From Longimicrobiales bacterium (GTDB lineage: Bacteria > Gemmatimonadota > Gemmatimonadetes > Longimicrobiales > Gaopeijiaceae): a stretch of 64,000 nucleotides of DNA. Where the stretch lies: NCBI GenBank assembly GCA_965238005.1, contig OZ250165.1:3264001-3328000 (forward strand), in the 5' to 3' direction. Shown piece by piece: positions 1 through 17,317 of the stretch. The translations under genes and the position numbers were made by a program. The notes below the pieces were generated by a model. It saw only the letters and a list, made by a program, of their open reading frames with translations. It was not told where the DNA came from and did no database searches. Each line of letters begins with the position of its first letter. Within the stretch, counting starts at the first letter, position 1.

Positions 1-547
1 GCAGGAGGACGTCGTGGACGACGAGGTCGTGCGTGCCCACGATGTGTCCGATGGCCGTCTCGTTGGCACCGTAACCCCCCACGAAGATCAGAGCGTCCCC
101 CACCCCGAAGAGGGATGCCATCCTGGCCTCCAGCCGCCGGTGCAGCTCCCGATCCCCGGAGGCGATGCGGCTGGCCCCCACAGAGGTGCCCAGGTACTCG
201 ATGGCTTCCTGGGCCGCGCGGTTCACCCTGGGATGTCCGGAGAGCCCCAGATAGTTGTAGGATCCGTAGTTGATGACCTCCCGGCCCTCAATCCGACTCG
301 TGGGCAGCGGGGAGCCGTCAATCGAGCGGAAGAACGGGTTGTCCTCCCCCATCTCCGCCAACCACTCCTTCTGGCGCCTCAGCTCGGCCATCCCCTCCTG
401 CAGGGATGGGTTCGCCGTGGGGCCGGGATGGGGATGATCGCCCGTGGATCCCGCGGCCGATCCTCTCTTCTTCTTCAGAAGCTCCGCGAGGATCTGTCGT
501 TTCTGGGCCGCCGAGTGGGCGTCGGGTTCGATATCGTCGGTCGGCAC
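1..547 (-). CDS. PLP-dependent alpha-oxoamine synthase (serine palmitoyltransferase / 8-amino-7-oxononanoate synthase family), 3' end outside window
   Basis: Not in the ORF track. Manual translation from GTG 547: MPTDDIEPDAHSAAQKRQILAELLKKKR...NPFF...EVINYGSYNYLGLSGHPRV...GTSVGASRIASG...HRRLE...ALIFVGGYGANETAIGHIVGTHDLVVHD. The SYNYLGL, GASR and GY-AN motifs are typical of the family. Starts 8 bp after the PKS stop. Confidence 0.92.
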   Translation of the reverse strand, partial: MPTDDIEPDAHSAAQKRQILAELLKKKRGSAAGSTGDHPHPGPTANPSLQEGMAELRRQKEWLAEMGEDNPFFRSIDGSPLPTSRIEGREVINYGSYNYLGLSGHPRVNRAAQEAIEYLGTSVGASRIASGDRELHRRLEARMASLFGVGDALIFVGGYGANETAIGHIVGTHDLVVHDVLL

Positions 548-555
548 GCGTGGTC

Positions 556-3500
556 CTACTCCCGCGCCGGCGCCGGCGGATCGTCCAGGAGCTCCTTCAA
601 CAGGGTGTCCACCTCACTGTCACTGAGGGCGTCCAAGTCCACGTCCGTGCCCGCCGCCTCCGAGGCGGTGGCGGGCGCTTCGCTCATCTGCTGGACCACG
701 CGGGTGGAGAGCCCGCCCAGGCTCTCCTGGATGTTGAGCTGAACGAGCGGGCTCCCGGCACCCAGGCCGGCCTCCAGGGCCAGCTCGAGGTCCACGCTCA
801 TGAGGGAGTCCACCCCCATCTCCAGGAGTGTGGTCTCGAGGGAGACCTTCTCGAGGTCCAGGTTCAGAAGCCGACCCAGCGTCTCCTTGAGGAAGTCCTG
901 GGTGACGAGGATGCGGTCCCCGGGGTCGGCCTCGGTGAAGCGCTCCACGAAGCTGCCCGGGCCAGAGGCGGAGTCCTGTCGGTCCACCATGGATGCGGAG
1001 GGGTCGTGATCGTCTAGGACCACCGTCTCTGCCCAGCGGTCCCATCGCACGTCGAAGGCGCCCACGGCCGGCGGCGCGCCGGCAAGGATCTCGCCGAAGC
1101 ACCGGAAGGCCCGGGCCAGAGGCAGTGCCTGGATGCCCCTTGCGGCCAAGTAGTGCCCTACGGCCTCGTCCCGGGCCACCATGCCCGCCTCCGCTATGGC
1201 ACCCCAAGCGATGCTCGTGGCGGGCAGCCCCTGCGCCCGCCGGTACTCCGCGAGGGAGTCCAGGTACACGTTGGCCGCGGCGTAGTTGGCCTGGCCGGCA
1301 TTGCCCAGCATGCCACTCACGGACGAGAAGAGCACGAAGTGATCCAGGGGCAGGCCCAGGCGCATGCTCGACCGGTGGAGGTTCAGGGCACCCAGGGCCT
1401 TGGCGTGGAACGCTGTGGCGAAGGTTTCCTCGGTCTGAAGGTCGACGGGGGCATCTGCCAGGACGGCCGCCGAGTGGAAGATGCCCCGGATGGGCGGCGC
1501 CAGCGCCCTCATCTCCTCCAGGAGAGCGTCGAGGGCCTCGGCATCGCCCACATCACAGGCGCGGCTCCACACGTCGCCGCCGCGCATGCGCGCCTCCTTC
1601 GACAGCGTGTCCAGCGCCGGGCTCTCCGGCGCGCTTCGGGACACGACGACGAGGTGGGTGGCGCCATGGACCGCCAGCCACTTGGCGGTCTCGAGGCCCA
1701 GCCCTCCGTGTCCACCGGTGACGACGTAGGTGGCATTCGCCCGCACCGCGGGTTCATGCACCCGGCGGGGGAGCGCCCACCGGGGTCCTGGGGACAGCTC
1801 CAGGGAGCGCTTGCCGATGTGGGTTCCCTCGGCGAGCCCCCGGAAAACCTCCACCACGTCGTCCGCCGGCCGGCTCTCCACCGGAATCGCGTGGTAATCG
1901 CCCCTCCCGAAGGCCTCCTTGACCTCCTGGGCGACGGCGTAGAAGAGGTCCCGCCGGATGGCCAACATCTGGTCGATGTCCACGGCACCGAAGGTGAGGT
2001 TCCGCTCGAAGTCGGCGAGGGGCAGGCCCTTGTTGGCGCCGATGTCCGCCTTGCCGATCTCCACCAGGCGCCCGAAAGGCGCCAGGACGCGGAGGCTGGC
2101 GTGGAGCAGGGCGTCGGGGAGAAAGTTCAGGACCACGTCCACGCCCCGGCCGTCGGTGGCCTCCAGGACCAGATCCTCGAAGTCGAGGGACCGGGAGTCG
2201 AAGACCGCCTCCACACCCATGTTCTCCAGATAGGCACGCTTTTTCTCCGTGCCAGCGGTGGCGAGGATGCGGGCAGCCGTCGCGCGAGCCACCTGCATGG
2301 CGGCGTGGCCCACACCCTCCGTGGCGGAGTGGAGGAGTACCCACTCGCTCTCCTTCAGACGCCCCACGTGCTTGAGTCCGTAATGGGCCGTGATGAAGGA
2401 GATGGGCAGGACCGCCGACTGCGCCGCGGACAGGGGAAGATCGCCCCAGCTGAGAATGAAGGCGTCTTCGGGCGAGAATGTGGCGTGGCTGCGGACGCCG
2501 CCGCTGCGCAGGCCAACGATGACTCGCTCTCCAACCTCGAAGTCGCTGTCGGGTCCCACGCGCACCACGGTCCCGGCACTTTCCATCCCCAGGGCGCAAT
2601 GGAAGAAGGTGCCGCGCAGGGACTGCTCGGCGATGCGCCCCATGGCCTTGAGCACGTCCTTGAAGTTCAGGGACGCTGCCTCGAAGCGGATCTCTAGTTC
2701 GTCGCCCACGGGCTCGCGCCGGAGGTGTACCCGGTACCGGAGCCCGTCGAGGCTGGGCCGGCGAGGAAGCTCCAGCGCAGCCGAGGCGTCGGCGGGCACG
2801 CTGATGGGGACCTCGTCCAGGGACGCGGCTCCGGTGGATGTCGCCGTGAGCTCGCGGGCAAAGATCTGCCCGTCGCGGACGGCCAGCTCGCCACCGCGGG
2901 GGAGGAGGAGGAGTCCGGCTCCCAGGCGGGCGAGACTCTCCGGGCATCCGTCCACGTCGACGCACGTCACACCCAGCTTCGGCTTCTCCCGCCGGAGGGT
3001 CCGGGCGACGCCCCACAAGGCGGCCTGACCCGGCACGCCGGTGTCCGTCGGCGTGACGCGCCACGCTCCTTGGGTCACGAGCACCAGCCGGGACGCCTTG
3101 CCCCGCCTCTCCAGCTCGCGGGCCGCCCGGATGAACTCCATGGCCGCCCGCGGATCGGGCTGGACGCTCGCGGTGCTCATGAATATGCCGAGAACGGGGC
3201 CGGACGGATCTTCGCCCGCCCCCACGACCGCCTCGGCGAGCGCCTTCAGGCCGGGTGCATCGTCGCCGAAGGCGAGGAACTCGCCAGCCGCTGCGGGGCG
3301 GACTTCCCCGAGGACGTCCCCGCGGAAGTCCCTCCACTCGAAGGCGTGATAGGGAATCCCCACCCGGGCGTCGTCATGAGGTGCCCGCGGAATCCGCTGC
3401 ATCCGGACGCCCTGGAGCTCGAGGAGGGGCGAGCCCTGCTCGTCGAGGAAGACGATGCGTCCGGTCTCCGATCCATCGAACTCGCCTTCCACCCGAATGG

Positions 3501-6500
3501 TGCCGGCCAGAGCGGCCTTGAACCAGGTCACGCGGCCCACGGAGACCGGGACGGGGGGCGCTTCGGTATCCGCGCACGCCAGAGCGAGCAGCTGCAGCCC
3601 GCCGTCCACCAGGGGCGGAGGACAGCGCAGCCCGGGGCCCAGTGTGTGCCCCTCCGGAAGGCACAACACGCCTTGCACCCGGGTCCCGGAGACGCGGGCG
3701 GACTCGATGGTCCGGAAAGACCCCCGATAGTCCAGGCCCATTCCCGCCAGGAGGGAGTACACCTCCTCGCCGGTGTACGAAGTGTGGTCGGTGCCGTCCA
3801 CGGGGGTCAGCCTCCCCACCGAAGACCGGCTCTGACGCACCATCCGGGCCCGGGCGTACAGACGCCATTCCTCGTCATTGGCCAGGTTCCGGGCGTGCAA
3901 CGTCAGTTCGTCACCCGTGGAGGTCGTCCGCAAGGCGAACGTCCCTGTCTCCCCCAAGGGCAGGAGACTCTCGAAATGCACGTCGGAGACGCCGAATCCG
4001 GCCTGGGGATGGAGACTCTCCACAGCGGCGAGGAAGGTCTCCACGTACGCGGCCGCCGGGAAGATGGGTCGCCCGTCCACGACGTGATCCCGGAGGGTGG
4101 ATAGCTCCGCGCTCCCCAGACTCGTCTCCCAGGAGGGCAGCGGGTCGGGGGTCCGGAGCCCCAGGTAGGGATGCTCTCTCTTTCCCCGACGGGCCATCAT
4201 GGACGCGCGGCTTTCCCGCCACAGGTGCTGACGCTGCCAGGGATACGCTGGAAGGTCCGTGCGCCGTCCGGGGAGAAGGTCGTCCCAGCGGCCGGACCGC
4301 CCCCCGCACCAGAGGGCCCCGGCCGTGCGCAGGAGCGAGTCCCTTTCGCCGGAGGGACGGACGAGCGAGGCGTGCACGGCAACTGGATGTCCGGCCCTCC
4401 CGAAGGTTTGCTCGATGGCACCGGAGAGGACCGGATGCGGTCCTATCTCCACGAAGGTCCGGTGTCCCGCGGCGGCCAGGGCGTGCAGAGTATCGTGGAA
4501 GAGCACCGGCTGCCGGACGTTCCGCCACCAATAGCCGGGGTCGTGTACGGCGCCTTCCACTCGGCCTCCCAGGACCGAGGAAAAGAGGTCCACCTCGGGT
4601 GCTGACGGCACTAGTCCGCCCAGGCACTCCAGGAGCTCGGCCTCCAGCCCGTCCATCTGGTGGCTGTGGTACGCCACCTCCCCGAGAACGAGCGTGCTGA
4701 AGATGCCCTGTCCCTCGAGCTCTCGTGCCACCTCGGTCAGCGTCGCCTCATCGCCCGCCAGGACCGTGGAGACGTGGCTGTTGACCGCGCCTACGGAGAT
4801 CTGGCCTGCATAGAGGTCCGCGAGTTCCCGGGCGGTGTCCAGGTCCAGCCCCGTGGCCAGCATCCGTCCCTGTCCGGCCCGGGTCTGCTGGAGGCGGCTC
4901 CTGTGGAAGGCCACGAGGGCCGCGTCCTCCAGGCTGAGGGCGCCGGCGGCCAGGGCCGCACCCACTTCACCCACGCTGTGTCCAACCACGGCGGACGGGA
5001 CGATGCCCCAGTGGCGCAGCAGTGTGGTGAGCCCGTGCTGCAGGACGAAGTTCGCCGGCTGGGCCACTGCGTTGGTCGCCATCCGGGAGGATGCCTCGTC
5101 CTCGAGCATCTCCTCGAGGACCGACCAGCCCGAATGGGATCCAAAGGCGACGTCGGCGGCTTCCAGTGCCTCCCGGAAGACCGGCTCGGAGTCGTGGAGC
5201 TCGCGGCCCATCCCCCACCACTGGGGTCCTATTCCCGTGAAGACGAATACGGGATCCTCCTCCGAGGCGGACCCATCGGCGACGAGCAATGCGGGGTGGG
5301 GGTGCTCGAGAGCCAGAGCCTCCAGGGCGGCGCACGCCGTGTCGCGGTCGGGCGCGACGACGGCGGCCCGGTGGCTCAGGAAGTCCCGGTGACACGCCAG
5401 GGTGTGAGCGATGTCGGCCAGACTCTCGGGACCGCCCAGGGCGGACACCGCCTCCTGGAGATCCAGGGCCCGCTGCCCCAGCGCGCTTCCGCCCTTGGCC
5501 GACAGAAGGAGGAGTGTGGGGCTCGCGACCGCTTCCGCGGGTTCGCATCGGTGTCCCGCGGGGGCCGCCAACGAGTCCGGTGACGGTCCCTGGTGTCGTC
5601 CCAACACCGCGTGGGCGTTGGAACCGCCGAAGCCGAAGGAGTTTACGCAGGCCAATGGGTCGCCGCGGGCCGACGGCAGCGGCGCGGGCGCTCGGGGCAC
5701 CTCCATGTCCCCTGCGCCCAAGGGGAGTCCGGGGTCGATATCGCCGAGGCTCGCCTGGGGCACCGCTTCACCGTGGTAGAGGCACAGCGCCGCCTTGATG
5801 AGGCCCGCCACGCCAGCGCCGGCTTCCTGATGGCCAGTGTTGCCCTTCACCGATCCGACGTACCGGATACCCCCGTCCTGCCTCCCCCCCAGCGTCTGAG
5901 CCAGAGCGGAGACCTCGGTGGGGTCGCCGATGGCCGTGCCCGTCCCGTGGGCCTCGATGAGAACTACGTCGTCCGCCGACTTCCCGCTCTCCGCGAGCAC
6001 AGTCTGGATGAGCTCGGCCTGGGCGTGGCCATCGGGGGACGCGATCCCCGCCGTGCGTCCGTCCTGATTCACCCCCGCCCCGTGCACCAGGGCATAGATG
6101 CGGTCGCGATCCCGGAGCGCCTGAGCGAACGGCCTGAGGATGACCATCCCCGCGCCCTCCCCCCGGGAGTAGCCGTCGGCAGTGACGTCGAAGGCCTTTG
6201 AGCGGGAGTCGGGGGAGAGGAAACCACCCTTGGACATGGCCACGGGCACGGTGGGGTAGAGAAGCACGTTGACGCCGCCCACCAGGGCCGCGTCGGTCCT
6301 ACCACTCCAGAGGTCCTGACAGGCGTAGTGGAAGGCTACCAGGGACGAGGAGCAAGCCGTGTCGATGGTCAGCGACGGGCCCTTGAGGTCGAACACGTGG
6401 GAGAGGCGGTTGGAGAGCATGCCCAGCGTGCTGCTCGTCCCCGTGAACTGGTTCACCTGGTACTGGTTGAGGATGCCGGTCTGGATGATGTAGTTGTCCA

Positions 6501-6975
6501 GGGTGAAGCCCCCGACGTACACGCCCACCCGGCCCTTCTCCCAGGCCGTCACCGGGATGCCCGCGTCCTCGAACGCTTCCCACCCGACCTCGAGGAGGAG
6601 CCGCTGCTGGGGGTCTAGGCTCTCCGCCTCGCGAGGGGAGAAGCCGAAGAACTGCGCGTCGAAGTCCTCCAGTCGGACGCCGGTGAGGAAAGCCGCCTGC
6701 CTGGGTCTCGCCCGACCCTGGACCGAGCCGTCGTCGTCGGTGAAGCGTTCGGCGTCCCAGCGGTCGGCGGGCACATCCGTGAATCCGTCGTCTCCCCGCG
6801 CCAGGAAGTGCCAGAACTTCGAGGGTGACCGAACACCACCAGGGTACCGGCACCCTATGCCGACGATGGCTAGGGCTTCGCGGGGTCCGTGTGTGTTCAG
6901 TCTATCCATGGAGCGCGCGGCAACGACCTGATGGAGGGTCGACGGTGACGGTACGGGTTGCTCTGTGGCACTCAC
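556..6975 (-). CDS. Single-module reducing type I polyketide synthase KS-AT-DH-ER-KR-ACP (no MT, no TE)
   Basis: KS DTACSSSL/HGTGT/GHQE; AT GHSVG...VAYHSH; DH HVVDGRPIFP; ER LNFKD...HSATEGVG; KR TGGHGGLG...LAD...GQANYAAAN; ACP GVDSLM. Start is either GTG 6975 (GTGA overlap with the upstream stop) or ATG 6909. Confidence 0.96.
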   Translation of the reverse strand: MSATEQPVPSPSTLHQVVAARSMDRLNTHGPREALAIVGIGCRYPGGVRSPSKFWHFLARGDDGFTDVPADRWDAERFTDDDGSVQGRARPRQAAFLTGVRLEDFDAQFFGFSPREAESLDPQQRLLLEVGWEAFEDAGIPVTAWEKGRVGVYVGGFTLDNYIIQTGILNQYQVNQFTGTSSTLGMLSNRLSHVFDLKGPSLTIDTACSSSLVAFHYACQDLWSGRTDAALVGGVNVLLYPTVPVAMSKGGFLSPDSRSKAFDVTADGYSRGEGAGMVILRPFAQALRDRDRIYALVHGAGVNQDGRTAGIASPDGHAQAELIQTVLAESGKSADDVVLIEAHGTGTAIGDPTEVSALAQTLGGRQDGGIRYVGSVKGNTGHQEAGAGVAGLIKAALCLYHGEAVPQASLGDIDPGLPLGAGDMEVPRAPAPLPSARGDPLACVNSFGFGGSNAHAVLGRHQGPSPDSLAAPAGHRCEPAEAVASPTLLLLSAKGGSALGQRALDLQEAVSALGGPESLADIAHTLACHRDFLSHRAAVVAPDRDTACAALEALALEHPHPALLVADGSASEEDPVFVFTGIGPQWWGMGRELHDSEPVFREALEAADVAFGSHSGWSVLEEMLEDEASSRMATNAVAQPANFVLQHGLTTLLRHWGIVPSAVVGHSVGEVGAALAAGALSLEDAALVAFHRSRLQQTRAGQGRMLATGLDLDTARELADLYAGQISVGAVNSHVSTVLAGDEATLTEVARELEGQGIFSTLVLGEVAYHSHQMDGLEAELLECLGGLVPSAPEVDLFSSVLGGRVEGAVHDPGYWWRNVRQPVLFHDTLHALAAAGHRTFVEIGPHPVLSGAIEQTFGRAGHPVAVHASLVRPSGERDSLLRTAGALWCGGRSGRWDDLLPGRRTDLPAYPWQRQHLWRESRASMMARRGKREHPYLGLRTPDPLPSWETSLGSAELSTLRDHVVDGRPIFPAAAYVETFLAAVESLHPQAGFGVSDVHFESLLPLGETGTFALRTTSTGDELTLHARNLANDEEWRLYARARMVRQSRSSVGRLTPVDGTDHTSYTGEEVYSLLAGMGLDYRGSFRTIESARVSGTRVQGVLCLPEGHTLGPGLRCPPPLVDGGLQLLALACADTEAPPVPVSVGRVTWFKAALAGTIRVEGEFDGSETGRIVFLDEQGSPLLELQGVRMQRIPRAPHDDARVGIPYHAFEWRDFRGDVLGEVRPAAAGEFLAFGDDAPGLKALAEAVVGAGEDPSGPVLGIFMSTASVQPDPRAAMEFIRAARELERRGKASRLVLVTQGAWRVTPTDTGVPGQAALWGVARTLRREKPKLGVTCVDVDGCPESLARLGAGLLLLPRGGELAVRDGQIFARELTATSTGAASLDEVPISVPADASAALELPRRPSLDGLRYRVHLRREPVGDELEIRFEAASLNFKDVLKAMGRIAEQSLRGTFFHCALGMESAGTVVRVGPDSDFEVGERVIVGLRSGGVRSHATFSPEDAFILSWGDLPLSAAQSAVLPISFITAHYGLKHVGRLKESEWVLLHSATEGVGHAAMQVARATAARILATAGTEKKRAYLENMGVEAVFDSRSLDFEDLVLEATDGRGVDVVLNFLPDALLHASLRVLAPFGRLVEIGKADIGANKGLPLADFERNLTFGAVDIDQMLAIRRDLFYAVAQEVKEAFGRGDYHAIPVESRPADDVVEVFRGLAEGTHIGKRSLELSPGPRWALPRRVHEPAVRANATYVVTGGHGGLGLETAKWLAVHGATHLVVVSRSAPESPALDTLSKEARMRGGDVWSRACDVGDAEALDALLEEMRALAPPIRGIFHSAAVLADAPVDLQTEETFATAFHAKALGALNLHRSSMRLGLPLDHFVLFSSVSGMLGNAGQANYAAANVYLDSLAEYRRAQGLPATSIAWGAIAEAGMVARDEAVGHYLAARGIQALPLARAFRCFGEILAGAPPAVGAFDVRWDRWAETVVLDDHDPSASMVDRQDSASGPGSFVERFTEADPGDRILVTQDFLKETLGRLLNLDLEKVSLETTLLEMGVDSLMSVDLELALEAGLGAGSPLVQLNIQESLGGLSTRVVQQMSEAPATASEAAGTDVDLDALSDSEVDTLLKELLDDPPAPARE

Positions 6976-8153
6976 AGCGCTCGCTCGTAGATCCGCCAGG
7001 ATCTGTACAGGCTGGCGCCGAAGTTGTCCAGTGCCAGGTTCGTTGCCTCGTTGTCCTCGAGGATCCACGAGAACTCAACGTCCTCCACCCCGAAGGTCGA
7101 GGCCCGGCGAACGGCCTCGTACAGGATCAAGGGAAGGACGCCCCCCCGTTGATACCGGGGGAGGATCCCGGTCAACATCGTCCGGACCCAAGGCGTGTGT
7201 CGGCGCGCCCTGAGAATCCTCAGCCAGTTCAGCGGTAGCAGGCGTCCGCTACGCGCCTTCAACATGGCCCGATTGTAGTCCGGAAGAAACAGCCCGAAGC
7301 CCACGAGCTCCCCGTTGGCCGTCGCCGCCACCATCCCGTCCTGCACCATGACGTCCTTCATCTCGTGCGCGATGAAGAGCCACTCGTCCACCTCGAGGGG
7401 CGTGAATCCCCAGTTCCCACTCCACGACTCGCAGTACACTTTCCAGCACTGGCGCATGGCCACTTCGAACTCCGACAGGTCCAGCGGTCCGAGCTCCAGG
7501 CCGAACTTTCCCATCACCCGACGGCTCAGCGTCTCGAACCGGCGGTGTAGATCGGGCACGGTCTCCCCGAGGTGGAGGTGCCACGCGAGGAGATCCTTGG
7601 CCTTCCGATACCCAGCTTCCTCCAGAATCTCCGGGTAGTACGGGGGATTCCACGAGGTCAAGAAGGTCTGGTTGTGCTCGAACCCACTCACCAGGATGCC
7701 GCCTTCGTAGTTGGTGGACGGGTTCCAGGGGCCCACCACAGAGTCGCACCCGTCTTCGCGGAGCCAGGCTTCGGTGACTTCCAGCAAGGCCCGCGCGGCG
7801 TCGGGCCGGTCGGCGCATTCGAAGAAGCCGAAGAAGCCCGGGCGATCGTCTCGGACCTCGTTGCTCCATCCGTTGCGGATGGCCGCCACGCGCCCCAGGG
7901 GGCGCCCTTCCTCCACCGCCAGGAAGAGCGCCCGCTCGGCGTTCCTGAAGAACGGGTTCTTCTTCGGGCTCAGGAGGGCCTTCACGCTCATGCGGAGCGG
8001 CGGGATCCACTGGGGATAAGCGTCGGCGTCGAGAATCTTCCAAGGCGCGTCCACGAAGCGCCGGAGACCGGAAGGCCCGGAGAGGCGGAGGACTTCCATC
8101 AGGTGGATGCGTTCAAGTGGAGGACTCTGGTCCGACGGGGGTTGAGCAGGCAT
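6972..8153 (-). CDS. YghO-like GNAT N-acyltransferase, similar to bacterial ceramide synthase (bCerS)
   Basis: ~390 aa with WIPPL...KNPFF...GRVAAI...GFFGFFE...GPWNPSTNYEGGILVSGF...NPPYYP...SWILEDN, the YghO/bCerS family pattern. Start may be 8153 or 8099. Confidence 0.8.
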   Translation of the reverse strand: MPAQPPSDQSPPLERIHLMEVLRLSGPSGLRRFVDAPWKILDADAYPQWIPPLRMSVKALLSPKKNPFFRNAERALFLAVEEGRPLGRVAAIRNGWSNEVRDDRPGFFGFFECADRPDAARALLEVTEAWLREDGCDSVVGPWNPSTNYEGGILVSGFEHNQTFLTSWNPPYYPEILEEAGYRKAKDLLAWHLHLGETVPDLHRRFETLSRRVMGKFGLELGPLDLSEFEVAMRQCWKVYCESWSGNWGFTPLEVDEWLFIAHEMKDVMVQDGMVAATANGELVGFGLFLPDYNRAMLKARSGRLLPLNWLRILRARRHTPWVRTMLTGILPRYQRGGVLPLILYEAVRRASTFGVEDVEFSWILEDNEATNLALDNFGASLYRSWRIYERAL

Positions 8154-8331
8154 GAAACGGCGGTTGCAAGGTGTCTGCAAAGCTCGATTATTGCCTCTGC
8201 GCGCGGTCCGCGTGGCGGCTGCGCCCAAGTGACCCGCAGGACGGCCCGGCCCCTTCTCGGTCGGGTGCAGGCGGGGACACTTCCCCGCGACTCAGGCCCG
8301 AGGAACGACTCTGACGCGCCACCTACGCTCC

Positions 8332-9681
8332 ATGGCCGGCGGCTACCTGGCCCTTGCGCTCATCTCTGTCCTGCGCATCCCGATGACGGGGACGCTGCGT
8401 ATGGCCGGCGAGCCGGTCATGCTGGCGTGGGAGTTGGTGTGGCGGTTGTCGTTTGCGGCGGGCATGGGTTGGATCGCGTGGCATTGGTGGTCGGCTCTGC
8501 ACCGAGAGGGACGGCCGGAGGGGGGAGACCCGCGGTCTCTGATCGCCGGCACTCTCGGTGTGCATCTGGCAGCCGCGCTCGCCCTCCCGCTCACGTCCTC
8601 CGACCTCTATTCCAATCTCGCGTACGGACATCTGGGGTGGTTAGGCTTCGATGCGTATGCCGTGGGACCCGGCGCGCTCCCGGTGGGCGACCCGTTCCGG
8701 GCCCTGGTGCCGTCTCCGTGGCAGGGGGTGCCCAGCGCGTACGGCCCACTGTTGGACGGTTTCAACCGGTTGGTGACCCTCACCGGCTCCGTGCCCGTGT
8801 CGATGGCCGTGCACAAGCTGATATCCTTCTCCATCGTCGTCGTCTCGGTGATGGTGGCGGCTCGGATCACATCCCGCTTCCTCACCGGGGCTTCCCGCGA
8901 ACGGGCCTTCGTTCTCCTTGCGCTCAACCCCGTGTTCGTGTGGGAGATCAGCGGGCAGTCGCACAACGACGGCCTCATGGTGTTGGCGATCCTCCTCGGC
9001 GTGTACTTCTTGTTGCTGGATCGGACATGGGCGGCTCTCGGGGCTCTGGTGATAGGAGCGCTGGTGAAGGTCGCGACGATCCCCATCCTTGGGCTCTTGC
9101 TCTGCTTGGAGCTTCGTAGGAGGCCCTCTCACGGGATCAGAATGTTGGTCACGTTGATCGGCGCCGGAGCCGCGCTCTGGGGGCTGTGGCCCACGGTCCC
9201 GGCAACGCTGGCGGCTCTGGCGACCAACACCGAGGTGGATCCGTACCGGATAACGAATTCGATCGCTTGGCTGATCCACACCGCGGCCGGCTACGCCGGA
9301 TCCGAGATGCAGGCGGTGGCGTTCCGCACCTGGAGTGCAATCACTGGCCTCGTCCTGCTTCTCGTCGGGGTGCGCGCCGCGCTCCGTACGAGAACGCCGG
9401 AGGACCTGCTGAGAGAAGCGCTCGGCTTCCTGCTCGTTCTTCTTTTCCTAGCGCCTCAGTTCCAGCCCTGGTACATCGCCTGGATCCTCCCTCTCGCGAT
9501 GGTGTCGCGGGAGAGGGCCGTTCCCGGGTTCGTGGCTCTCGTATCGATCCTCTTCGTAGCGCAGTATCCGATCACGCACCGACTGGTGGGATCGGTCACC
9601 ATGGTGTTCGTCCTTTGGACCTACGTGCGGACACCGGGCGTCCCGGGCATACCACGGTGGGGCCAGCAGAAATCGGTGTGA
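8332..9681 (+). CDS. GT-C membrane glycosyltransferase, MptA/MptB-like polyprenol-phosphate-mannose-dependent mannosyltransferase
   Basis: Polytopic; SSDLYSNLAYG, SAYGPL, NP....ISGQSHNDGLM, and QPWY..W motifs. Confidence 0.75.
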   Translation: MAGGYLALALISVLRIPMTGTLRMAGEPVMLAWELVWRLSFAAGMGWIAWHWWSALHREGRPEGGDPRSLIAGTLGVHLAAALALPLTSSDLYSNLAYGHLGWLGFDAYAVGPGALPVGDPFRALVPSPWQGVPSAYGPLLDGFNRLVTLTGSVPVSMAVHKLISFSIVVVSVMVAARITSRFLTGASRERAFVLLALNPVFVWEISGQSHNDGLMVLAILLGVYFLLLDRTWAALGALVIGALVKVATIPILGLLLCLELRRRPSHGIRMLVTLIGAGAALWGLWPTVPATLAALATNTEVDPYRITNSIAWLIHTAAGYAGSEMQAVAFRTWSAITGLVLLLVGVRAALRTRTPEDLLREALGFLLVLLFLAPQFQPWYIAWILPLAMVSRERAVPGFVALVSILFVAQYPITHRLVGSVTMVFVLWTYVRTPGVPGIPRWGQQKSV

Positions 9682-9866
9682 GGCCACGCGGTCCATCATT
9701 GGATCCCCGCCTCCTTGGCACGTGCCGTTGGACCAGCCCCCTATCCCTTTCCCTATCCCTGAGGTGCCCGTTAGAGTGTGGGGATGCGGGTGCAGGGGCA
9801 CCCCCTTTCGGCGCAAAGCTAGCTTCGGGTCCGGTTTCCAACCAACCGAATGTGGAGTCCCCCAGC

Positions 9867-11447
9867 ATGCCGTCCAAGCTCCCTCGCCTGGCTCATCTCG
9901 TCCTGGCGATCCTTGTACCCACGGGGCTCTCCGCACAACAAGATCCCGCCCGGACCGGCTCACGAACGCTGCCGACCGACTCCTGGACCTACGAGGCGAT
10001 CGAGCGGCTACGGCACAGAGGCTTCTTGCCGGAGATCAGCCCGATCGCGCAGCCCTACCGTCGAATCGACGTCGCAGCCGGATTGGCAGGAGTAGATCCG
10101 CAAGCTCACCAGGAGCCTATCGCCGCATGGATCCGTATCCTCCGCGAGGAGCTCGCTCCCGAGTTGGCACGACTCGAGGGCACAGATGACGCTACCACGC
10201 GGATAGGTGCGGAGATCCGACTTGGTGGGACGGCGGCGGACAGCCGGCGGCGCGATCCCCTCGTGCCGTTCCGAAGCACGGAAGAGGAGACGATCGAGGA
10301 TCGGGTATGGCCGTTCAACGCGGAAAGCGTGTGGCTCGAAACACACGGCGCCGCCATCGTGCTCGACCTCTACGCCGACCATTGGCACTACGCGGACAGC
10401 GGAGACCCCGACGGCGTGTCACCCTCTGGGTTCCTGTTCCTGCTACGCCGGAGCGACAACGCCTATGTGACGGCCGCCTTCCCCTGGGGAAACGTGTGGC
10501 TGGGAAGGATGCGACGGAACTGGGGCCCCATCGGCCGAACCGGCCTGATGTTGTCCGGCAACCCAGTGGCCTACCCGCAGTTCGGCTTGGATATCGGTCG
10601 CGGAAGGGTCGCAGTCCGATTCATGACGGGCGAGCTCGAGGCGGTCGACGGTCGCACCCGGTACTTCATGGCGAACAGGGTCGACTACGGCACGCCCAAC
10701 TTCTGGATCTCCCTCGGCGAGGCGAAGATCTTCTCGGCGGAGCGCCACTCCGCGCTCCGGTTCCTGAACCCGGCGGAGCTGCTGATCTTCGATCACGACA
10801 GCGAGCCCACCGACGTCACCGGCAACCTGATGTTCAACGGGCTCCTTTGGATGCGCCTCGGCGAAAGCACGGTCTACGGTGAGCTGGTGATCGACGACTT
10901 CGACCTCGATCCGTTCCTGGGCGGAACCGACCGTGATTCCGAGCCGATCAACTTCCAGTTGAGCATGGGCGCCCGATACCACGGGGTGTCGCCAAGGGTC
11001 GAGCTGGGACTCGACTACCGTCGCGTGTCGGCGTGGTCGTACCGGTCCCCTCCGGTCGCCGAGCGGTGGAGCTATCTGGATCAAGGTCTCGCAGATCCCT
11101 GGGCCGACTACGATCGGCTGGAACTCAGAGGGGATCTTTATCTCAATGTGGTGGGGCTGCGCCTCACGCCGATCATCCAGTTCCAGCGCATGGGCGAGGG
11201 TGACTACCGGGAGCCTTTCCCTGCCGATTACCTGGGCCAGCCATCCAACTTCCTCGGCGTGATGGAGACGACGCGTCGAATCGCAATACAAGGGCGCTAC
11301 CAGCCGCGGCGACAGATCTTCATCGAGTGGGACGTCGGGAGGAGCTTCATCTCCAACGCCGACCATATGGACAGAGTGGACGAGAACCGGTTCTCGTATC
11401 TGGTCCGCCTGGGCATGACCTTCGACTTCCATGGAAGCCTTCGATGA
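9867..11447 (+). CDS. Capsule assembly Wzi-family outer membrane beta-barrel
   Basis: Signal peptide from ATG 9867 (MPSKLPRLAHLVLAILVPTGLSAQ); GRMRRNWGP...LMLSGN motif; alternating beta-strand pattern. Confidence 0.7.
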   Translation: MPSKLPRLAHLVLAILVPTGLSAQQDPARTGSRTLPTDSWTYEAIERLRHRGFLPEISPIAQPYRRIDVAAGLAGVDPQAHQEPIAAWIRILREELAPELARLEGTDDATTRIGAEIRLGGTAADSRRRDPLVPFRSTEEETIEDRVWPFNAESVWLETHGAAIVLDLYADHWHYADSGDPDGVSPSGFLFLLRRSDNAYVTAAFPWGNVWLGRMRRNWGPIGRTGLMLSGNPVAYPQFGLDIGRGRVAVRFMTGELEAVDGRTRYFMANRVDYGTPNFWISLGEAKIFSAERHSALRFLNPAELLIFDHDSEPTDVTGNLMFNGLLWMRLGESTVYGELVIDDFDLDPFLGGTDRDSEPINFQLSMGARYHGVSPRVELGLDYRRVSAWSYRSPPVAERWSYLDQGLADPWADYDRLELRGDLYLNVVGLRLTPIIQFQRMGEGDYREPFPADYLGQPSNFLGVMETTRRIAIQGRYQPRRQIFIEWDVGRSFISNADHMDRVDENRFSYLVRLGMTFDFHGSLR

Positions 11448-11453
11448 CGGCGC

Positions 11454-12092
11454 GTGACTGACTCCGACCACCGTCCGGCGGTTGTGACTCTCGCCGCCGG
11501 GAGCATCGCAACTTGCCTGCGCGCCGCTCTTGCAAGCACCGGGCTCATCCGCCCGGTCGATTTCTTCCGGCACGAGAAGTACTACGCTCTGGCCGAGCAC
11601 TACCGTGGGAGGATTCTCGATCTCGGCACCGGAACGGGCCACTACTCGGCGTTCCTCGGCTCACTGGGCCATTCCGTCGTGGCCATGGATGTTTCGGACA
11701 CCAGCGAGCACGAGCAGATTCGGCCTATCATCTTCGACGGCCACACGATTCCCTTCGAGGACGATACGTTCGACTTGGTGCTGTGCATGTTCGTCTTGCA
11801 TCACTTGGGGCATCAGGATGAGCTGCTCACCGAGATGCGACGCGTCACGCGTCGCTCCGTTATCGTCGCCGAGGATCTCCGCGAGAATGCCTGGGACGGA
11901 TTCTGGTCGGGCGCGCACACTCGGTTCACAGACTGGGGGCGAGCCCAGGGGAGCTTCCACTCGGACTCGGAGTGGAGGGAGCGGTTCCGCCGCCAAGGGC
12001 TCCCCGTACGGGAACGCCTGACGATTCCACGCTGGCGGCTCCCCTATTACCCGGTCCTCCGCGCGGTGTACGTGCTCGGCGTGGAGCAGTGA
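11454..12092 (+). CDS. Class I SAM-dependent methyltransferase
   Basis: ILDLGTGTG; IPFEDDTFDLV; VLHH. Confidence 0.88.
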   Translation: MTDSDHRPAVVTLAAGSIATCLRAALASTGLIRPVDFFRHEKYYALAEHYRGRILDLGTGTGHYSAFLGSLGHSVVAMDVSDTSEHEQIRPIIFDGHTIPFEDDTFDLVLCMFVLHHLGHQDELLTEMRRVTRRSVIVAEDLRENAWDGFWSGAHTRFTDWGRAQGSFHSDSEWRERFRRQGLPVRERLTIPRWRLPYYPVLRAVYVLGVEQ

Positions 12093-12096
12093 CCGT

Positions 12097-13932
12097 ATGA
12101 GCGTCGGCATGTTGGTGATCGCGGGCCTGTGGGGGCTCATCTTTCTCGTTTTCACTGGAGTGGGAGTCGGCCTCCTCAGGGGGATCGGCTCACGCCGATT
12201 CGACGCGCAGGAGGTCTTCCTCGGGTTCTGGCTCGGGTACGCGGCGGCGATTTCGTTTCTACAACTCTGGCACCTCGTAGCCCCGATCTCACCGGTCTGC
12301 TTCCAGGTATTGGGGGCCGGTGCCTTGATAGGATGGGCGTCCCGCGGCGTCCACGTCGGGGAGTGGTGGCGCGTGAACCGCCACCGGTCGCTGGACCGCC
12401 TGCCTCGACTGGCCCTATTGGCCTTGGCGTGGTCCCTTTTCGCGGTCTGGCTGTCTAACCGGGCGCTCGCTCCGATCACACCTCAAGACGCCGGGATCTA
12501 CCATCTGGGCTCGATCCGTTGGGCTCAGCAGTTCGCGATCGTCCCCGGCCTCGCCAACCTCCATGGCCGCTTCGGTTTCAATAGCTCGCATCTCTTGGTG
12601 CTGGCGATGCTCGACCTGGGGTCCTGGGCACCGAGCTTCCATCACCTGACGAGCGGGCTGCTGCTCCTCGTGTCCTCGACCCACGCCTGGTGGCTCCTCG
12701 GTCAGCTGATCCAAAGACAAGCCCTCGCCGGAGCCGAAACGCTAATAGGCGCCCTCCCTCTCGCCGGGCTTGCGCCGTATTACTTCCTGGAGGCGAGCGC
12801 GACCTCGACAGACCTGCCGGCCCTACTGCTCGGCCTCACGTTGGGTGTCTCGTTCTTTCGAGTTCTCTTCCCCCGCGAACCGGATCGGGTCCCCATCGAC
12901 GTCTTCGCCGTCGTGGTGCTCGCTGCCGCGGGCGTCTCGGTCAAGCTGTCCTTCGTCTTGCTTGGTCTCCCGGTGGCGACCGTGGCTGCGGTGGTCGCCG
13001 CGCACCGTCCGGGGGCGAAGATGTCGGGCGCGCGGAGCGTCCTGATGGTAGCGGCGGTCATGGCCGCCGTGACCCTGGGCACCTGGGCGACACGCGGGGT
13101 GATTCTCACGGGATACGTGGCCTACCCAGCGTCGTCCGCCCTGAGAACGGACGTGGCGTGGCGCGTCCCTGCCGATCAGGCGAGGTGGGAACGTGCATAC
13201 ATCGACGCATGGTCACGGACGCCGATGGATCCTCCAGCCGAGCAGTATCCGTACGACACCGCCGAGCGCCTGCAAGCGAGGGTGACTGGGGGGGGCTGGC
13301 TCGCGCCCTGGCTCGCCCGCACGCTCCTTCGGTTCGACCTGGTGACGGTGCCGCTGATCTTGTTCGGAGCGGGCCTTGCGGTGCGTGGACGCACCTGGGA
13401 CCGAGACCGAGAAGGCTGCGGGCGTGGCGCACTCTTCCTCGCCCCAGTTGGGATCGCCGTCGTCCTCTGGTTCTTGACCGCACCCGCGCCACGCTTCGCC
13501 GGCGCGACGTTCTGGCTTCTCGGAGCCGGAGCGTGTGCCCTCGCTTTCGAGGGAACACTCAACTCCACCCGCACAAGCCTGTCCCGGTGGGTGGCCGGAC
13601 TCGTCGTTCTTCTCTTCACGATCTCGATGACTGCGTCGTGGATCGTAGCCGCCCGTCGCTATCCCTGGAGCCTGTGGGTCACACCCGCCCCGGGCGGGGG
13701 TTTACATCCGATCCCGCAAGCGGAGGTGCGAACTGTTGTCTATCCGTCTGGCCTGGTCGCGCGCTGGGCGCCCGATACGCGGTGCTGGGACGCACCAATC
13801 CCTTGCGCGGGGAGTCGGCCGAATCCGAGCCTCCGATTGCGAACACCAGGAGAGCTGCAGAGCGGATTCGCACTCGAGCCCTACGAGGGCCGGGCCGAGG
13901 ACGCCATGCTACTATTCCGTCTCGATCCCTGA
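12097..13932 (+). CDS. Polytopic membrane protein (LIC_10190-like, probable GT-C-type fold)
   Basis: Many TM helices; DAGIYHLGSIRW...PGLANLHGRFGFNSS and WF..AP.PRF motifs. Confidence 0.6.
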   Translation: MSVGMLVIAGLWGLIFLVFTGVGVGLLRGIGSRRFDAQEVFLGFWLGYAAAISFLQLWHLVAPISPVCFQVLGAGALIGWASRGVHVGEWWRVNRHRSLDRLPRLALLALAWSLFAVWLSNRALAPITPQDAGIYHLGSIRWAQQFAIVPGLANLHGRFGFNSSHLLVLAMLDLGSWAPSFHHLTSGLLLLVSSTHAWWLLGQLIQRQALAGAETLIGALPLAGLAPYYFLEASATSTDLPALLLGLTLGVSFFRVLFPREPDRVPIDVFAVVVLAAAGVSVKLSFVLLGLPVATVAAVVAAHRPGAKMSGARSVLMVAAVMAAVTLGTWATRGVILTGYVAYPASSALRTDVAWRVPADQARWERAYIDAWSRTPMDPPAEQYPYDTAERLQARVTGGGWLAPWLARTLLRFDLVTVPLILFGAGLAVRGRTWDRDREGCGRGALFLAPVGIAVVLWFLTAPAPRFAGATFWLLGAGACALAFEGTLNSTRTSLSRWVAGLVVLLFTISMTASWIVAARRYPWSLWVTPAPGGGLHPIPQAEVRTVVYPSGLVARWAPDTRCWDAPIPCAGSRPNPSLRLRTPGELQSGFALEPYEGRAEDAMLLFRLDP

Positions 13933-14095
13933 GCCCGAACAGACCAGGCAGGCCAGCAGCCAGTGAACGCTCTGAACAACCTCGTGAAGACCGTCGTGGA
14001 AAGCCATTTCGCAACCGGCTCCGCTATCGGCCCGGGCGCAATCCCGAACGCCGGTGGAGTCCAGGGCATGGACGCGATGCAGGGCACAGGACGGA

Positions 14096-14473
14096 ATGTC
14101 TATGCATCTCCCCGGCAGCTTCGCCGACCACATGGTGCCGGGATCGCTCTTCCTCCCCCATCGGAGCCACGGTGTGATGCCGACCGCAATGCATCTCTTG
14201 ATCGTGTTCGAATTCTGGGCGCTGGGAGTAGCTGTAGCCCTCGAGGGACTGGGCGTGCCCCAGGCGGTCATGCTGTGGTTCCGGACCGGGCTCTTGCTCC
14301 TGCTTGCTACCTGGTTCGTTCAGGTCTCGTTCTCGTTGTACGTCGTCGGACTTCCGACGGACAGGACCGGGGCCGAGCGGTCGTTCGTCTTTTTCGCATG
14401 GCACGTACTCACGATCAGTGCTGCCCTCTTCGGGCTCCGTGCCCTGAAACCCCGGGGCACGGGCAACCAGTGA
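14096..14473 (+). CDS. Short TMEM45/DUF716-like membrane protein, apparently internally deleted
   Basis: GSFADHMVPGSLFL, RTGLLLLLATWFVQVSFSLY and FFAWH resemble TMEM45 motifs; only ~125 aa. Confidence 0.45.
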   Translation: MSMHLPGSFADHMVPGSLFLPHRSHGVMPTAMHLLIVFEFWALGVAVALEGLGVPQAVMLWFRTGLLLLLATWFVQVSFSLYVVGLPTDRTGAERSFVFFAWHVLTISAALFGLRALKPRGTGNQ

Positions 14474-14552
14474 CCGGGTGGGCTTCCACAGCGGTCCGCA
14501 TGCATATTCCTGCGTGGGAAGTCGCTCCTCCGCAGACCGTCGCCCTTCATCT

Positions 14553-15257
14553 ATGATCCCCCGCATCATCCATCAAACCTGGAAGGACCGTGACGTGCCC
14601 GCGCGGTTCCAGGAGGCACAAGCGAGTTGGTAAGAAGCACACCCGGATTGGGAGTATCGCTTGTGGACCGACCGGGACCTCGAGGGCCTGATTAATGAAC
14701 GGGCCCCGGAGCTGGCGCCGCTGTATGCCGCATACCCAGAGAACATCCAACGCGTAGACGCCGCCCGATATGTCATTCTCCGGGAGTTCGGTGGACTGTA
14801 TGCCGACCTGGACATACAGTGTCTCAAGCCCGTCGACGGTCTCCTCGATGCTCAGGTCGTTCTGCCGCGCACCACGCCGTTCGGCGTGTCGAACCAGCTC
14901 ATGCTATCCGTACCCGACCACGCACTCTTCCATCACGCGGTGGCGTCTTTGCCGGCGGCCTTCGCGAAGCACCGGCGCCTGTGGCCACGCCACGTCCGGA
15001 TCCTCTCGACGGCCGGCCCGTTGTTCCTGACGGATTGCCTTCGGACGTTCGGCGACGTCCAAGGGCTCCGGACCCTCACACTCGATGAGCACGGTCATGG
15101 GAAGCCACACCTCGCCTACGTACGCCACCTCCGGGGCAACACCTGGGCGGAATGGGATACGCATGTGATCAACTTCTTCCACGACCATTGGAAGGTCCTG
15201 GCGGCTGGAGCCGCCGGATCGGCCGCGGCTGCAATCCTCATCCGGGCCCTGCTTTGA
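14553..15257 (+). pseudogene. GT32 (SUR1/CSH1/Och1-like, DXD) mannosyltransferase with in-frame TAA at 14631-14633
   Basis: MIPRIIHQTWK...ASW*EAHPDWEYRLWTD...RVDAARY.IL..FGGLYADLD; the reading frame is the same on both sides of the stop. Confidence 0.85.
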
Positions 15258-16243: not shown

Positions 16244-16359
16244 TGAGCTCGGAATCGCGGCTGCCGGTGAAGGAGGGGAGATTATTGCGTTCAAGTTCGG
16301 GGGCAGCGAGGTTGCTGAACCGATCGACTGAACGAACAGGGATGCCGCAAGGGTCGACC

Positions 16360-17232: not shown

Positions 17233-17317
17233 CTAGGTACTAGCCACCTCTTCCAGAGCAAGCCGCACCGCACGTGATCGTTTCCCACCGGCACCGGTTC
17301 GTTTTCCTGAGACTGTC

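Follow-up and report, generated by a model that had tools for sequence, protein, structure and literature searches.

Introduction

In Caulobacter, the ceramide genes have been named spt (CC_1162), cerR (CC_1164) and cerS (CC_1154) (PMC11324152). The portions of PMC9386255 drawn on here give E. coli B counterparts for aasR (CC_1165), 'epi' (CC_1164), acpR (CC_1163) and spt (CC_1162), and the legend to its Fig. 9 lists 'aca' (CC_1154), the ceramide N-acyltransferase, with yghO (ECD_02850), together with epi (ECD_02852) and spt (ECD_02854). As described in the consulted part of PMC11087976, the bacterial ceramide synthase (bCerS) acylates 3-ketosphinganine, reduction by CerR comes after, and the Caulobacter CerR is periplasmic. 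A different supply of the long-chain base is described for Pseudomonas fluorescens MYb115, in which a type I polyketide synthase (PKS) that works iteratively, PfSgaA, and an alpha-oxoamine synthase (AOS), PfSgaB, yield C24-C28 sphinganines (Peters et al., 2025, PMC12134224). Here a locus of a Longimicrobiales bacterium (Gemmatimonadota) is described, in which genes for a PKS and an AOS stand beside genes for a YghO/bCerS-type N-acyltransferase of the GNAT family and a CerR-type short-chain dehydrogenase/reductase (SDR). The locus begins in a stretch of 64 000 nucleotides, the window (contig OZ250165.1, positions 3264001-3328000), of a single-contig 4.84-Mb genome that is 95.85% complete. It is probably a bacterial ceramide operon whose acyl-supply module is an iterative PKS of the RkpA, WcbR and SgaA sort.

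PfSgaB strongly preferred L-serine over L-alanine and glycine in vitro, and labelled serine was incorporated in vivo; PfSgaC was proposed to be a KDSR-like SDR, and 6101 homologous clusters were reported, mostly from Burkholderia (PMC12134224). The MYb115 products were sphinganines and phosphoglycerol derivatives 154 Da heavier. In the parts of that paper drawn on here no N-acyl chain is mentioned for them, and ceramide synthase appears as background only.

A sequence-only reading of the window had taken the pairing of a megasynthase with a bCerS-like enzyme to be undescribed. This stands in part: the PKS-fed sphingoid base was already published in 2025 (PMC12134224, as consulted), but its union with bCerS and CerR seems unpublished. 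In the literature searched, that union, a Gemmatimonadota host and an appended gene pair encoding an acyl carrier protein (ACP) plus a ketosynthase (KS) were undescribed, although supplements (PMC12134224 Supplementary Data 4, Stankeviciute et al.) might list such loci.

Organization of the locus

The list of open reading frames (ORFs) placed three minus-strand frames in window positions 1-8228, a GNAT-like protein, a type I PKS and the start of an AOS. With 18 kb fetched to the left of the window, the operon order from 5' to 3' is GNAT, PKS, AOS, SDR, ACP and FabF-like KS. The features are as follows (window positions unless a contig is named).

6972..8228, minus strand: GNAT ORF in its longest form (ORF list)
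6972..8099, minus strand: YghO/bCerS-type GNAT N-acyltransferase, 375 aa from ATG 8099 (Pfam; BLAST against YghO)
556..7068, minus strand: PKS ORF in its longest form, 2139-2170 aa depending on the start (ORF list)
556..6975, minus strand: single-module fully reducing type I PKS, 2139 aa from GTG 6975 (Pfam; junction reading)
5749..6876, minus strand: KS domain, residues 65-440 (PF00109 1.8e-77, PF02801 1.4e-32)
4366..5250, minus strand: acyltransferase (AT) domain, residues 607-901 (PF00698 7.7e-67)
3379..4173, minus strand: dehydratase (DH) domain, residues 966-1230 (PF21089 9.4e-15, PF14765 1.7e-15)
1807..2703, minus strand: enoylreductase (ER) domain, residues 1456-1754 (PF08240, PF00107 7.9e-20, PF13602)
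1192..1734, minus strand: ketoreductase (KR) domain, residues 1779-1959 (PF08659 3.9e-60)
703..894, minus strand: ACP domain, residues 2059-2122 (PF00550 3.8e-06; GVDSL serine motif in the translation)
559..702, minus strand: acidic C-terminal tail of the PKS after the ACP, possibly a docking helix (by comparison with the PKS tail of locus L138, described below)
1..547, minus strand: AOS, first 182 codons, cut by the window start (ORF list; SPT/BioF/KBL models)
contig 3263222-3264547, minus strand: whole AOS gene, 441 aa (recovered from the genome)
contig 3262190-3263176: CerR-type SDR, 328 aa, left of the window (PF01370 8.7e-35)
contig 3261776-3262036: free ACP, 86 aa, left of the window (ACP models)
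contig 3260533-3261765: FabF-like KS, left of the window (family scan)

Tight coupling of the three minus-strand genes, with a 4-bp overlap and an 8-bp gap, had been read from the sequence and was confirmed at both junctions. The GNAT frame ends in CTG TGA and shares four bases (GTGA, 6975-6972) with the GTG start of the PKS, while the PKS stop (GAG TAG, stop at 556-558) is followed after 8 bases by the AOS GTG at 547. The gap from AOS to SDR is 45 bp, and the ACP and KS come next. The ceramide-type genes of the locus are clustered, as they are in E. coli B. An extent of the GNAT gene to 8153 had been proposed; an in-frame ATG does lie there, upstream, but ATG 8099 is favoured as the start because the homologues measure 374-378 aa.

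The gene order is not an artefact of assembly: both junctions are covered by contigs in public runs belonging to two further studies. Record 14 of run X2 (6752 nt, 16 differing letters) spans the AOS-PKS junction, and record 16 of X2 and record 24 of X4 span the PKS-GNAT junction with at most 16 differing letters. A 17.7-kb contig of run X1, which may be the source sample, spans SDR to GNAT with zero differences. Promoter and terminator scans of the locus gave nothing above chance worth leaning on.

The polyketide synthase

Pfam matches of the PKS (ketoacyl-synt/Ketoacyl-synt_C, Acyl_transf_1, PKS_DH_N/PS-DH, ADH_N/ADH_zinc_N, KR and PP-binding) give the domain order KS-AT-DH-ER-KR-ACP, and no thioesterase family is among them, as the sequence-only reading had held. 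The strings DTACSSS, EAHGTGT, GHSVGE, HVVDGRPIFP, GGHGGLG and GVDSL are visible by eye in the translation, and we take them to be the usual active-site strings. An iterative PKS of this domain set, lacking a thioesterase and followed by an AOS with an N-terminal extension, is also the arrangement of SgaAB, rkpA-rkpG and wcbR-wcbT, PfSgaAB being compared by published architecture rather than by its own sequences. The PKSs of a Pseudomonas plasmid, S. meliloti (RkpA) and Caballeronia measure ∼2500 aa and hold ∼330 extra residues between DH and ER; this PKS is 32-37% identical to them. Its homologues in the protein database are 97%, 81% and 59% identical, and thereafter 51% or less.

The acidic tail that follows the ACP, '..DLDALSDSEVDTLLKELL..', resembles the PKS tail of L138, '..NVDEISDGDVDQILKTLL..'. 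Because the acidic tails are alike in the two PKSs and a basic N-terminal helix is found in PKS-adjacent AOSs, it is possible that tail and AOS extension form a docking pair.

A phosphopantetheinyl transferase (PPTase) had been suggested as a gene to look for left of the window; none lies within the locus, and the two PPTase genes of the genome are both distant, at 3.629 and 4.587 Mb. Two more large type I PKS frames (2093 and 2390 aa) lie at contig 3611035-3618092, ∼11 kb from a PPTase gene, which is located as follows.

contig 3628887-3629210: PPTase gene near the two further PKS frames

A kinship with the swf clusters of sponge symbionts was considered and set aside, their release enzyme being a different one. 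These comprise SwfA (PKS), SwfB (reductase-sulfotransferase) and SwfC (radical SAM) and likewise have a mono-modular KS-AT-DH-ER-KR-ACP PKS from uncultured marine bacteria; as described in the consulted part of PMC3908369, a thioester reductase carries out release, neither an AOS nor a GNAT is present, and SwfA lacks the DPQQR and HGTGT motifs that the present KS domain retains.

The alpha-oxoamine synthase and its clade

Compared with E. coli Spt, the AOS shows 35% identity (E 7e-60), and its best solved relatives are Sphingobacterium serine palmitoyltransferase (SPT; PDB match 1.6e-69). It shares ∼46% identity with RkpG across 90% of its length, and tblastn against plasmid records returned AOSs that are 45-51% identical, the N-terminal extension being covered too. 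All NCBIfam equivalog scores fall below their cut-offs (bioF 343 of 426 bits; SPT models 330 of 640, 296 of 500 and 213 of 670).

Phylogeny was assessed with a careful IQ-TREE analysis of 34 rows and a quick analysis of 98 rows. The base of the 34-row tree is occupied by E. coli BioF and Kbl and two paralogues from the same genome (L084, L086). Spt of E. coli, Roseomonas and Parabacteroides form a 99/97 clade with 14 GNAT-linked AOSs, whereas the present AOS falls in a different, 100/100 clade with the AOS of L138, RkpG, the AOSs of the Pseudomonas plasmid and Caballeronia, a Streptomyces PKS-AOS fusion and a Bacillus ACP-AOS; identities to the rkp, Pseudomonas and Caballeronia enzymes are 45-47%. 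The same clade holds five AOSs from GNAT loci (L026, L050, L155, L168 and L042). The 98-row tree concurs on this clade (99 SH-aLRT), which was named 'carrier-linked' after the first tree was seen. Of the proposal that the AOS is SPT-like, the separation from BioF and Kbl is upheld, but the enzyme belongs to an RkpG/WcbT-type clade rather than with canonical Spt.

That the AOS might be a housekeeping BioF or Kbl lying by chance beside a PKS is given next to no credence. Although the bioF model TIGR00858 is the top NCBIfam row, its score is under the cut-off, no bio or tdh genes are nearby, E. coli BioF and Kbl and the paralogues L084 and L086 branch outside the AOS clade, and the AOS lies only 8 bp from the PKS.

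In each of the five GNAT-locus cases the AOS forms the C-terminal domain of a larger protein (1101-1215 aa); for those of L050 and L042, Pfam gives the order AMP-binding, PP-binding, aminotransferase. Each of these fusions of a fatty acyl-AMP ligase (FAAL), an ACP and an AOS has a CerR-type SDR gene in front and a YghO-type GNAT gene behind. Such operons, from other Gemmatimonadota and a gammaproteobacterial metagenome-assembled genome (MAG) and comprising L026, L050, L155, L168 and L042, resemble the present locus in AOS (44-55% identity), GNAT (33-42%) and SDR (36-50%). They differ in that the chain would be taken up by the fused ligase and ACP, where here it would be made by the PKS. They resemble a self-loading variant of the ceramide pathway, and no description of them was found in the literature searched. 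The acyl donor is always tethered in this AOS clade, because there is a fused FAAL-ACP, a fused ACP, a fused PKS or an adjacent PKS. The fusion loci span 1518-8995 in L050 and 4753-10995 in L042, the latter additionally with a PAP2 phosphatase gene.

An N-terminal extension of ∼45-95 aa, opening with a short basic amphipathic helix, was present in all five PKS-adjacent AOSs aligned and absent from all three canonical Spt; in the fusions an ACP and linker stand at that place. Among the reference loci, the S. meliloti rkp-1 type encodes a PKS of 2502 aa, an AOS of 471 aa and an SDR of 267 aa and also has capsule and KpsF genes, the Pseudomonas plasmid has PKS-AOS with capsule genes, and Caballeronia has PKS-LpxC-like-AOS. 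Further reference loci are the Streptomyces PKS-AOS fusion, the Bacillus ACP-AOS and the canonical Spt genes of Roseomonas, with ACP and LptF/G genes, and of Parabacteroides.

A further question is whether the AOS uses serine. If it took glycine, alanine or cysteate, a 1-deoxy-type or sulfono-type lipid and no true sphingolipid would result, an outcome regarded as rather improbable. It would be in keeping with the failure to pass any SPT equivalog cut-off and the nominal first place of bioF (343 bits, cut-off 426), with a cysteate-C-fatty acyltransferase among the PDB matches (1.5e-50) and with a sulfate adenylyltransferase/APS kinase gene that lies downstream of the KS at a distance of 573 bp. 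Even so, Sphingobacterium SPT gives the best PDB matches, no cysteate synthase was noticed among the ORFs scanned, and no PF13469 or PF00685 sulfotransferase was found in the genome at its 95.85% completeness. PfSgaB, the characterised AOS of such clusters, strongly prefers L-serine (PMC12134224, as consulted).

A second Spt-like AOS (L083, contig 409643-410635) lies between thymidine kinase and YegS/diacylglycerol-kinase-type lipid kinase genes. This paralogue is sister (93/85) to the carrier-linked clade and may be the ordinary Spt of the genome.

The N-acyltransferase, the reductase and the ACP-KS pair

Comparison of the GNAT was made with E. coli YghO, standing in for Caulobacter bCerS. 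The two proteins are 29% identical over 375 of 375 aa (E 4e-46), whereas Pfam gave a weak Acetyltransf_1 match only (23.3 bits). The gene was thereby confirmed as YghO-type and, as a full-length homologue of a protein listed with CC_1154 (PMC9386255, as consulted), also as bCerS-like. It is single-copy in the genome, and it is 42% and 33% identical to the GNATs of L050 and L042 respectively, both of which adjoin AOS and CerR-type SDR genes. Homologues of 88, 83, 82, 65 and 63% identity are in the protein database, with one of 61% named Longimicrobiales. The existence of close homologues for both PKS and GNAT suggests that a few close relatives share the operon.

In an intact E. coli strain yghO is accompanied by a divergent acyl-AMP ligase gene, an epimerase gene, an ACP gene, an annotated spt and then lptG/lptF paralogues. 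In E. coli K-12 (L132, 7044-9341) IS5 abuts yghO, at the place taken in other E. coli strains by the genes for acyl-AMP ligase, epimerase, ACP and Spt. Of 5426 complete E. coli genomes, 4549 have yghO DNA.

A CerR-like reductase, sought to the left of the window, was found directly after the AOS. The SDR matches the epimerase of the E. coli cluster over its full length (29% over 319 aa, E 1e-37), so a CerR-type reductase is present in the operon; it is 50% identical to the SDR of L042. No BLASTP match at E 1e-3 was obtained with RkpH or with the SDRs of the Pseudomonas plasmid and L138, and the enzyme is not a KDSR/RkpH-like classical SDR. Unlike the periplasmic Caulobacter CerR, it begins directly at the Rossmann motif. 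The free ACP that follows shows the motif LGLDSL. The KS of the operon is additional to another KS, probably the housekeeping one, which lies at 1.84 Mb and shares 41% identity with it.

The locus therefore has the same three enzyme types as the ceramide cluster of Caulobacter and E. coli, with full-length homology to the E. coli proteins. As in that pathway, the AOS substrate would be a carrier-protein acyl thioester. In contrast to it, no acyl-ACP synthetase or small AcpR precedes the AOS, and the 2139-aa PKS stands there instead.

A predicted route to a ceramide-type lipid

All steps of the following scheme are inferred from homology and gene order. A PPTase encoded elsewhere would activate the ACP of the PKS, and the PKS would elongate a starter with malonyl units to a long saturated acyl-S-ACP. 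The PKS cannot free its own chain because it has no thioesterase. The AOS, a pyridoxal phosphate enzyme of the RkpG/WcbT/SgaB-type clade, would dock on the PKS and carry out a condensation between the acyl thioester and an amino acid, L-serine being the likeliest, so that a 3-keto long-chain base is released; such release by decarboxylative condensation would follow the same logic as in the SgaAB, rkp and wcb systems. The YghO/bCerS-type GNAT would then N-acylate the base, possibly with an acyl group from the terminal ACP-KS pair, and the CerR-type extended SDR would reduce the 3-keto group. The PKS would thus stand in for the acyl-ACP supply provided by AasR and AcpR in Caulobacter and E. coli B, or by the AOS-fused FAAL-ACP in other Gemmatimonadota.

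That the operon makes a ceramide-type lipid, with a long-chain base assembled by an iterative, fully reducing type I PKS dedicated to it, is considered reasonably likely and is the explanation preferred here. Within what homology, phylogeny and synteny can show, the ceramide interpretation first drawn from the window is supported.

A more elaborate scheme is put forward as speculative and unlikely in its entirety. The operon would be a complete ceramide assembly line in which both chains come from dedicated carriers, the PKS chain serving a very-long-chain base and the N-acyl group coming from the free ACP (extended by the FabF-like KS) or from the PKS ACP, not from acyl-CoA. The neighbouring sugar and 3'-phosphoadenosine-5'-phosphosulfate (PAPS) genes would lead to a glycosylated, perhaps sulfated, outer-membrane sphingolipid, and YghO-type GNATs would serve generally as N-acyltransferases that off-load ACP-bound chains; their pairing with other megasynthases (L054, L058) would thereby also be accounted for.

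If the preferred explanation is true, bacteria can feed a ceramide pathway from a polyketide synthase, and sphingolipid chain lengths or patterns beyond ordinary fatty-acid pools would become accessible. It would link the bacterial Spt/bCerS/CerR route with the PKS-derived sphinganines of Pseudomonas, make acyl supply an exchangeable module (AasR and AcpR, fused FAAL-ACP, or PKS), give the long-puzzling PKS genes of the rkpA/wcbR type a chemical role that can be tested and add Gemmatimonadota to the likely producers of sphingolipids. Surveys of sphingolipid producers by Spt phylogeny could easily overlook a second clade of AOSs next to bCerS genes.

Occurrence of PKS and GNAT genes with ceramide-type genes

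A KS-AT search at E 1e-60 or better across 401 Gemmatimonadota genomes, this one included, gave matches in 89, the best outside this genome being 43% identical. Twenty of the best-scoring PKS places were opened; 19 were multi-PKS or unrelated clusters, and one, L138, from another Gemmatimonadota family, had the order PKS-AOS-SDR-GNAT. The union of PKS, AOS, SDR and GNAT is thus found a second time. The L138 PKS (2549 aa) has the domains KS-AT-DH-methyltransferase-ER-KR-ACP, the AOS (456 aa) is 46% identical to the present one, the SDR is of the classical type and 35% identical to the S. meliloti SDR beside rkpG, and the GNAT (381 aa) is YghO-type, 28% identical to the present GNAT and 29% to YghO. 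Because gene order, reductase class and PKS domain set differ, the evidence fits separate assembly of the two PKS-AOS-GNAT loci.

The YghO-type GNAT family comprised 1755 proteins at E≤0.001 among 8000 candidates scored, in at least 594 genome and at least 578 metagenome loci, of which the best 80 of each were searched (tblastn, 1e-10). An AOS lay within 10 kb of the GNAT in 44 of the 80 loci from genomes and 49 of the 80 from metagenomes, a CerR-type SDR in 38 of 80 of either kind, and both together in 33 and 35 of 80. Among loci with at least 5 kb on each side, an AOS was found in 30 of 47 from genomes and 13 of 15 from metagenomes. Weak AT matches occurred in two genome loci, L058 and L068, that of L058 sitting in a quite different megasynthase.

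In a FastTree analysis of 170 rows, a clade with support 100 unites the GNAT with its close homologues; it lies within a larger clade dominated by Gemmatimonadota, which also includes the AOS-linked GNATs of L026, L050, L155, L168 and others. A separate clade, from Thermodesulfobacteriota, Nitrospirota and Aminicenantota MAGs, has a 2560-2695 aa megasynthase (NMO-KS-AT-ACP-KR-DH) next to the GNAT.

Several observations weigh against the preferred explanation. Joining of a PKS to these genes is rare: a PKS with both AOS and GNAT beside it was seen at one of the 20 PKS places opened, and no match to the DH, ER or KR of this PKS was found in any of the 80 genome or 80 metagenome GNAT loci, many of these 160 being short. 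The sister branch of this GNAT clade, placed there with weak support (83) and holding Gemmatimonadales GNATs, has no AOS in the locus. Its loci L006, L161, L192 and L193 have ACP and KS genes a few kb from the GNAT (KS 60-66% identical), an ACP directly beside the KS being confirmed in L193, and in five genomes of the branch the best AOS match is merely 36-39% identical, the level of the paralogue at 409.6 kb in the present genome. Because this branch is tied to ACP-KS and not to an AOS, it does not follow that every YghO-type GNAT is a ceramide synthase. The AOS reaches none of the SPT cut-offs (330 against 640 bits) and stands outside the 99/97 clade of characterised Spt, and the place of PfSgaB in its clade was taken from cluster architecture, not from sequence. 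The ER nucleotide motif, as seen by eye, is HSATEGVG instead of GGVG, its usual form. No RNA run was listed as holding the stretch among the public-run matches.

Some of these observations would also suit two pathways side by side, in which PKS, AOS and SDR make a free sphinganine-like base, as SgaABC do, while the GNAT acts with the ACP-KS pair or a megasynthase ACP on another amine acceptor to give another N-acyl lipid. The ACP-KS genes of the sister branch fit this, as do L054 and L058 in the separate clade, where the GNAT is followed by the different megasynthase and no AOS is nearby; nor is an N-acyl chain mentioned for the MYb115 products in the consulted part of PMC12134224. Two pathways are nonetheless judged quite unlikely. 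The GTGA overlap of the GNAT stop and PKS start argues for co-translation of the GNAT with PKS and AOS, this is the only YghO-type gene of the genome, most GNAT-family relatives adjoin AOS and SDR, and L138 independently unites PKS, AOS, SDR and GNAT. As judged from gene neighbourhoods, YghO-type GNATs are repeatedly coupled to carrier-bound acyl chains, which keeps another acceptor in play and also suggests an ACP as donor.

L054 (8156-20526) and L058 (9920-19723), from Desulfobacca- and Desulfotignum-type MAGs, have the GNAT followed by the megasynthase (NMO-type ER, KS, AT, KR and DH; an ACP domain scored in L054 only) and no AOS within 10 kb. L054 also has B12-binding and radical-SAM genes, an APS kinase and a sulfotransferase, and L058 has a PPTase. 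Such loci may represent an undescribed pathway to a sulfated N-acyl lipid. APS-kinase-like genes near YghO-type GNATs also occur in L054, L065 and L082. A YghO-type GNAT was present in 152 of 238 genomes of the class around a Sulfitobacter MAG; in L032 the genes for AOS, GNAT and SDR stand directly one after another, so roseobacter-type bacteria may make ceramide. Remoter YghO-like paralogues (L127, L129) adjoin glycogen-phosphorylase-like genes and no ceramide locus.

Surroundings of the operon

A block of sugar genes begins 573 bp past the KS and is headed by the following gene.

contig 3258232-3259959: bifunctional sulfate adenylyltransferase/APS kinase (Sat/CysC)

It is followed by genes for a sugar-nucleotide epimerase/dehydratase, a CapD/PglF-like protein, a Bac_transf sugar-phosphate transferase, a GT2 glycosyltransferase and a DDE transposase. 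A weak terminator-like hairpin lies in the 573-bp gap between KS and Sat/CysC, and a 137-aa ORF between these genes was not counted as a gene, having no family match and an Arg/Pro-rich translation.

These surroundings bear on whether the same chemistry might yield a lipid on which a surface polysaccharide or glycolipid is anchored or primed, and not bulk membrane ceramide. An anchor role has long been proposed for rkpA/rkpG in the Sinorhizobium K antigen and for wcbR/wcbT in the Burkholderia capsule. The AOS clusters with RkpG, at ∼46% identity, envelope-glycan genes embed the locus on both sides, and L050 too has CapD and DegT genes past its GNAT. Against this, ORF scans of ∼38 kb showed no Kps-type capsule family (no targeted KpsC/KpsS search was made), whereas capsule biosynthesis and KpsF genes appear in the annotation of the rkp and Pseudomonas loci. 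The rkp/wcb-type loci examined have no YghO-type GNAT, which the present locus has, and their SDR is classical rather than CerR-type. The 573-bp gap and its hairpin part the KS from Sat/CysC, and a DDE transposase sits among the sugar genes. An anchor is accordingly held to be somewhat unlikely, though it deserves appreciable weight.

The transposase (5560-6516) and a helix-turn-helix gene (4581-4994), both in L002, the stretch fetched left of the window, end the polysaccharide gene block. On the other side, divergent from the operon, an envelope-glycan neighbourhood occupies window positions 8332-18523 of the plus strand.

8332-9681, plus strand: MptB-like membrane glycosyltransferase (family scan)
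∼9930-11447, plus strand: secreted 505-aa protein, no family
11454-12092, plus strand: methyltransferase
12097-13932, plus strand: LIC_10190-family membrane protein
between 13932 and 15152, by listed order, plus strand: Gly_transf_sug protein
15152-16243, plus strand: flippase-like LPG_synthase_TM protein
last in the block 8332-18523, plus strand: TPR protein

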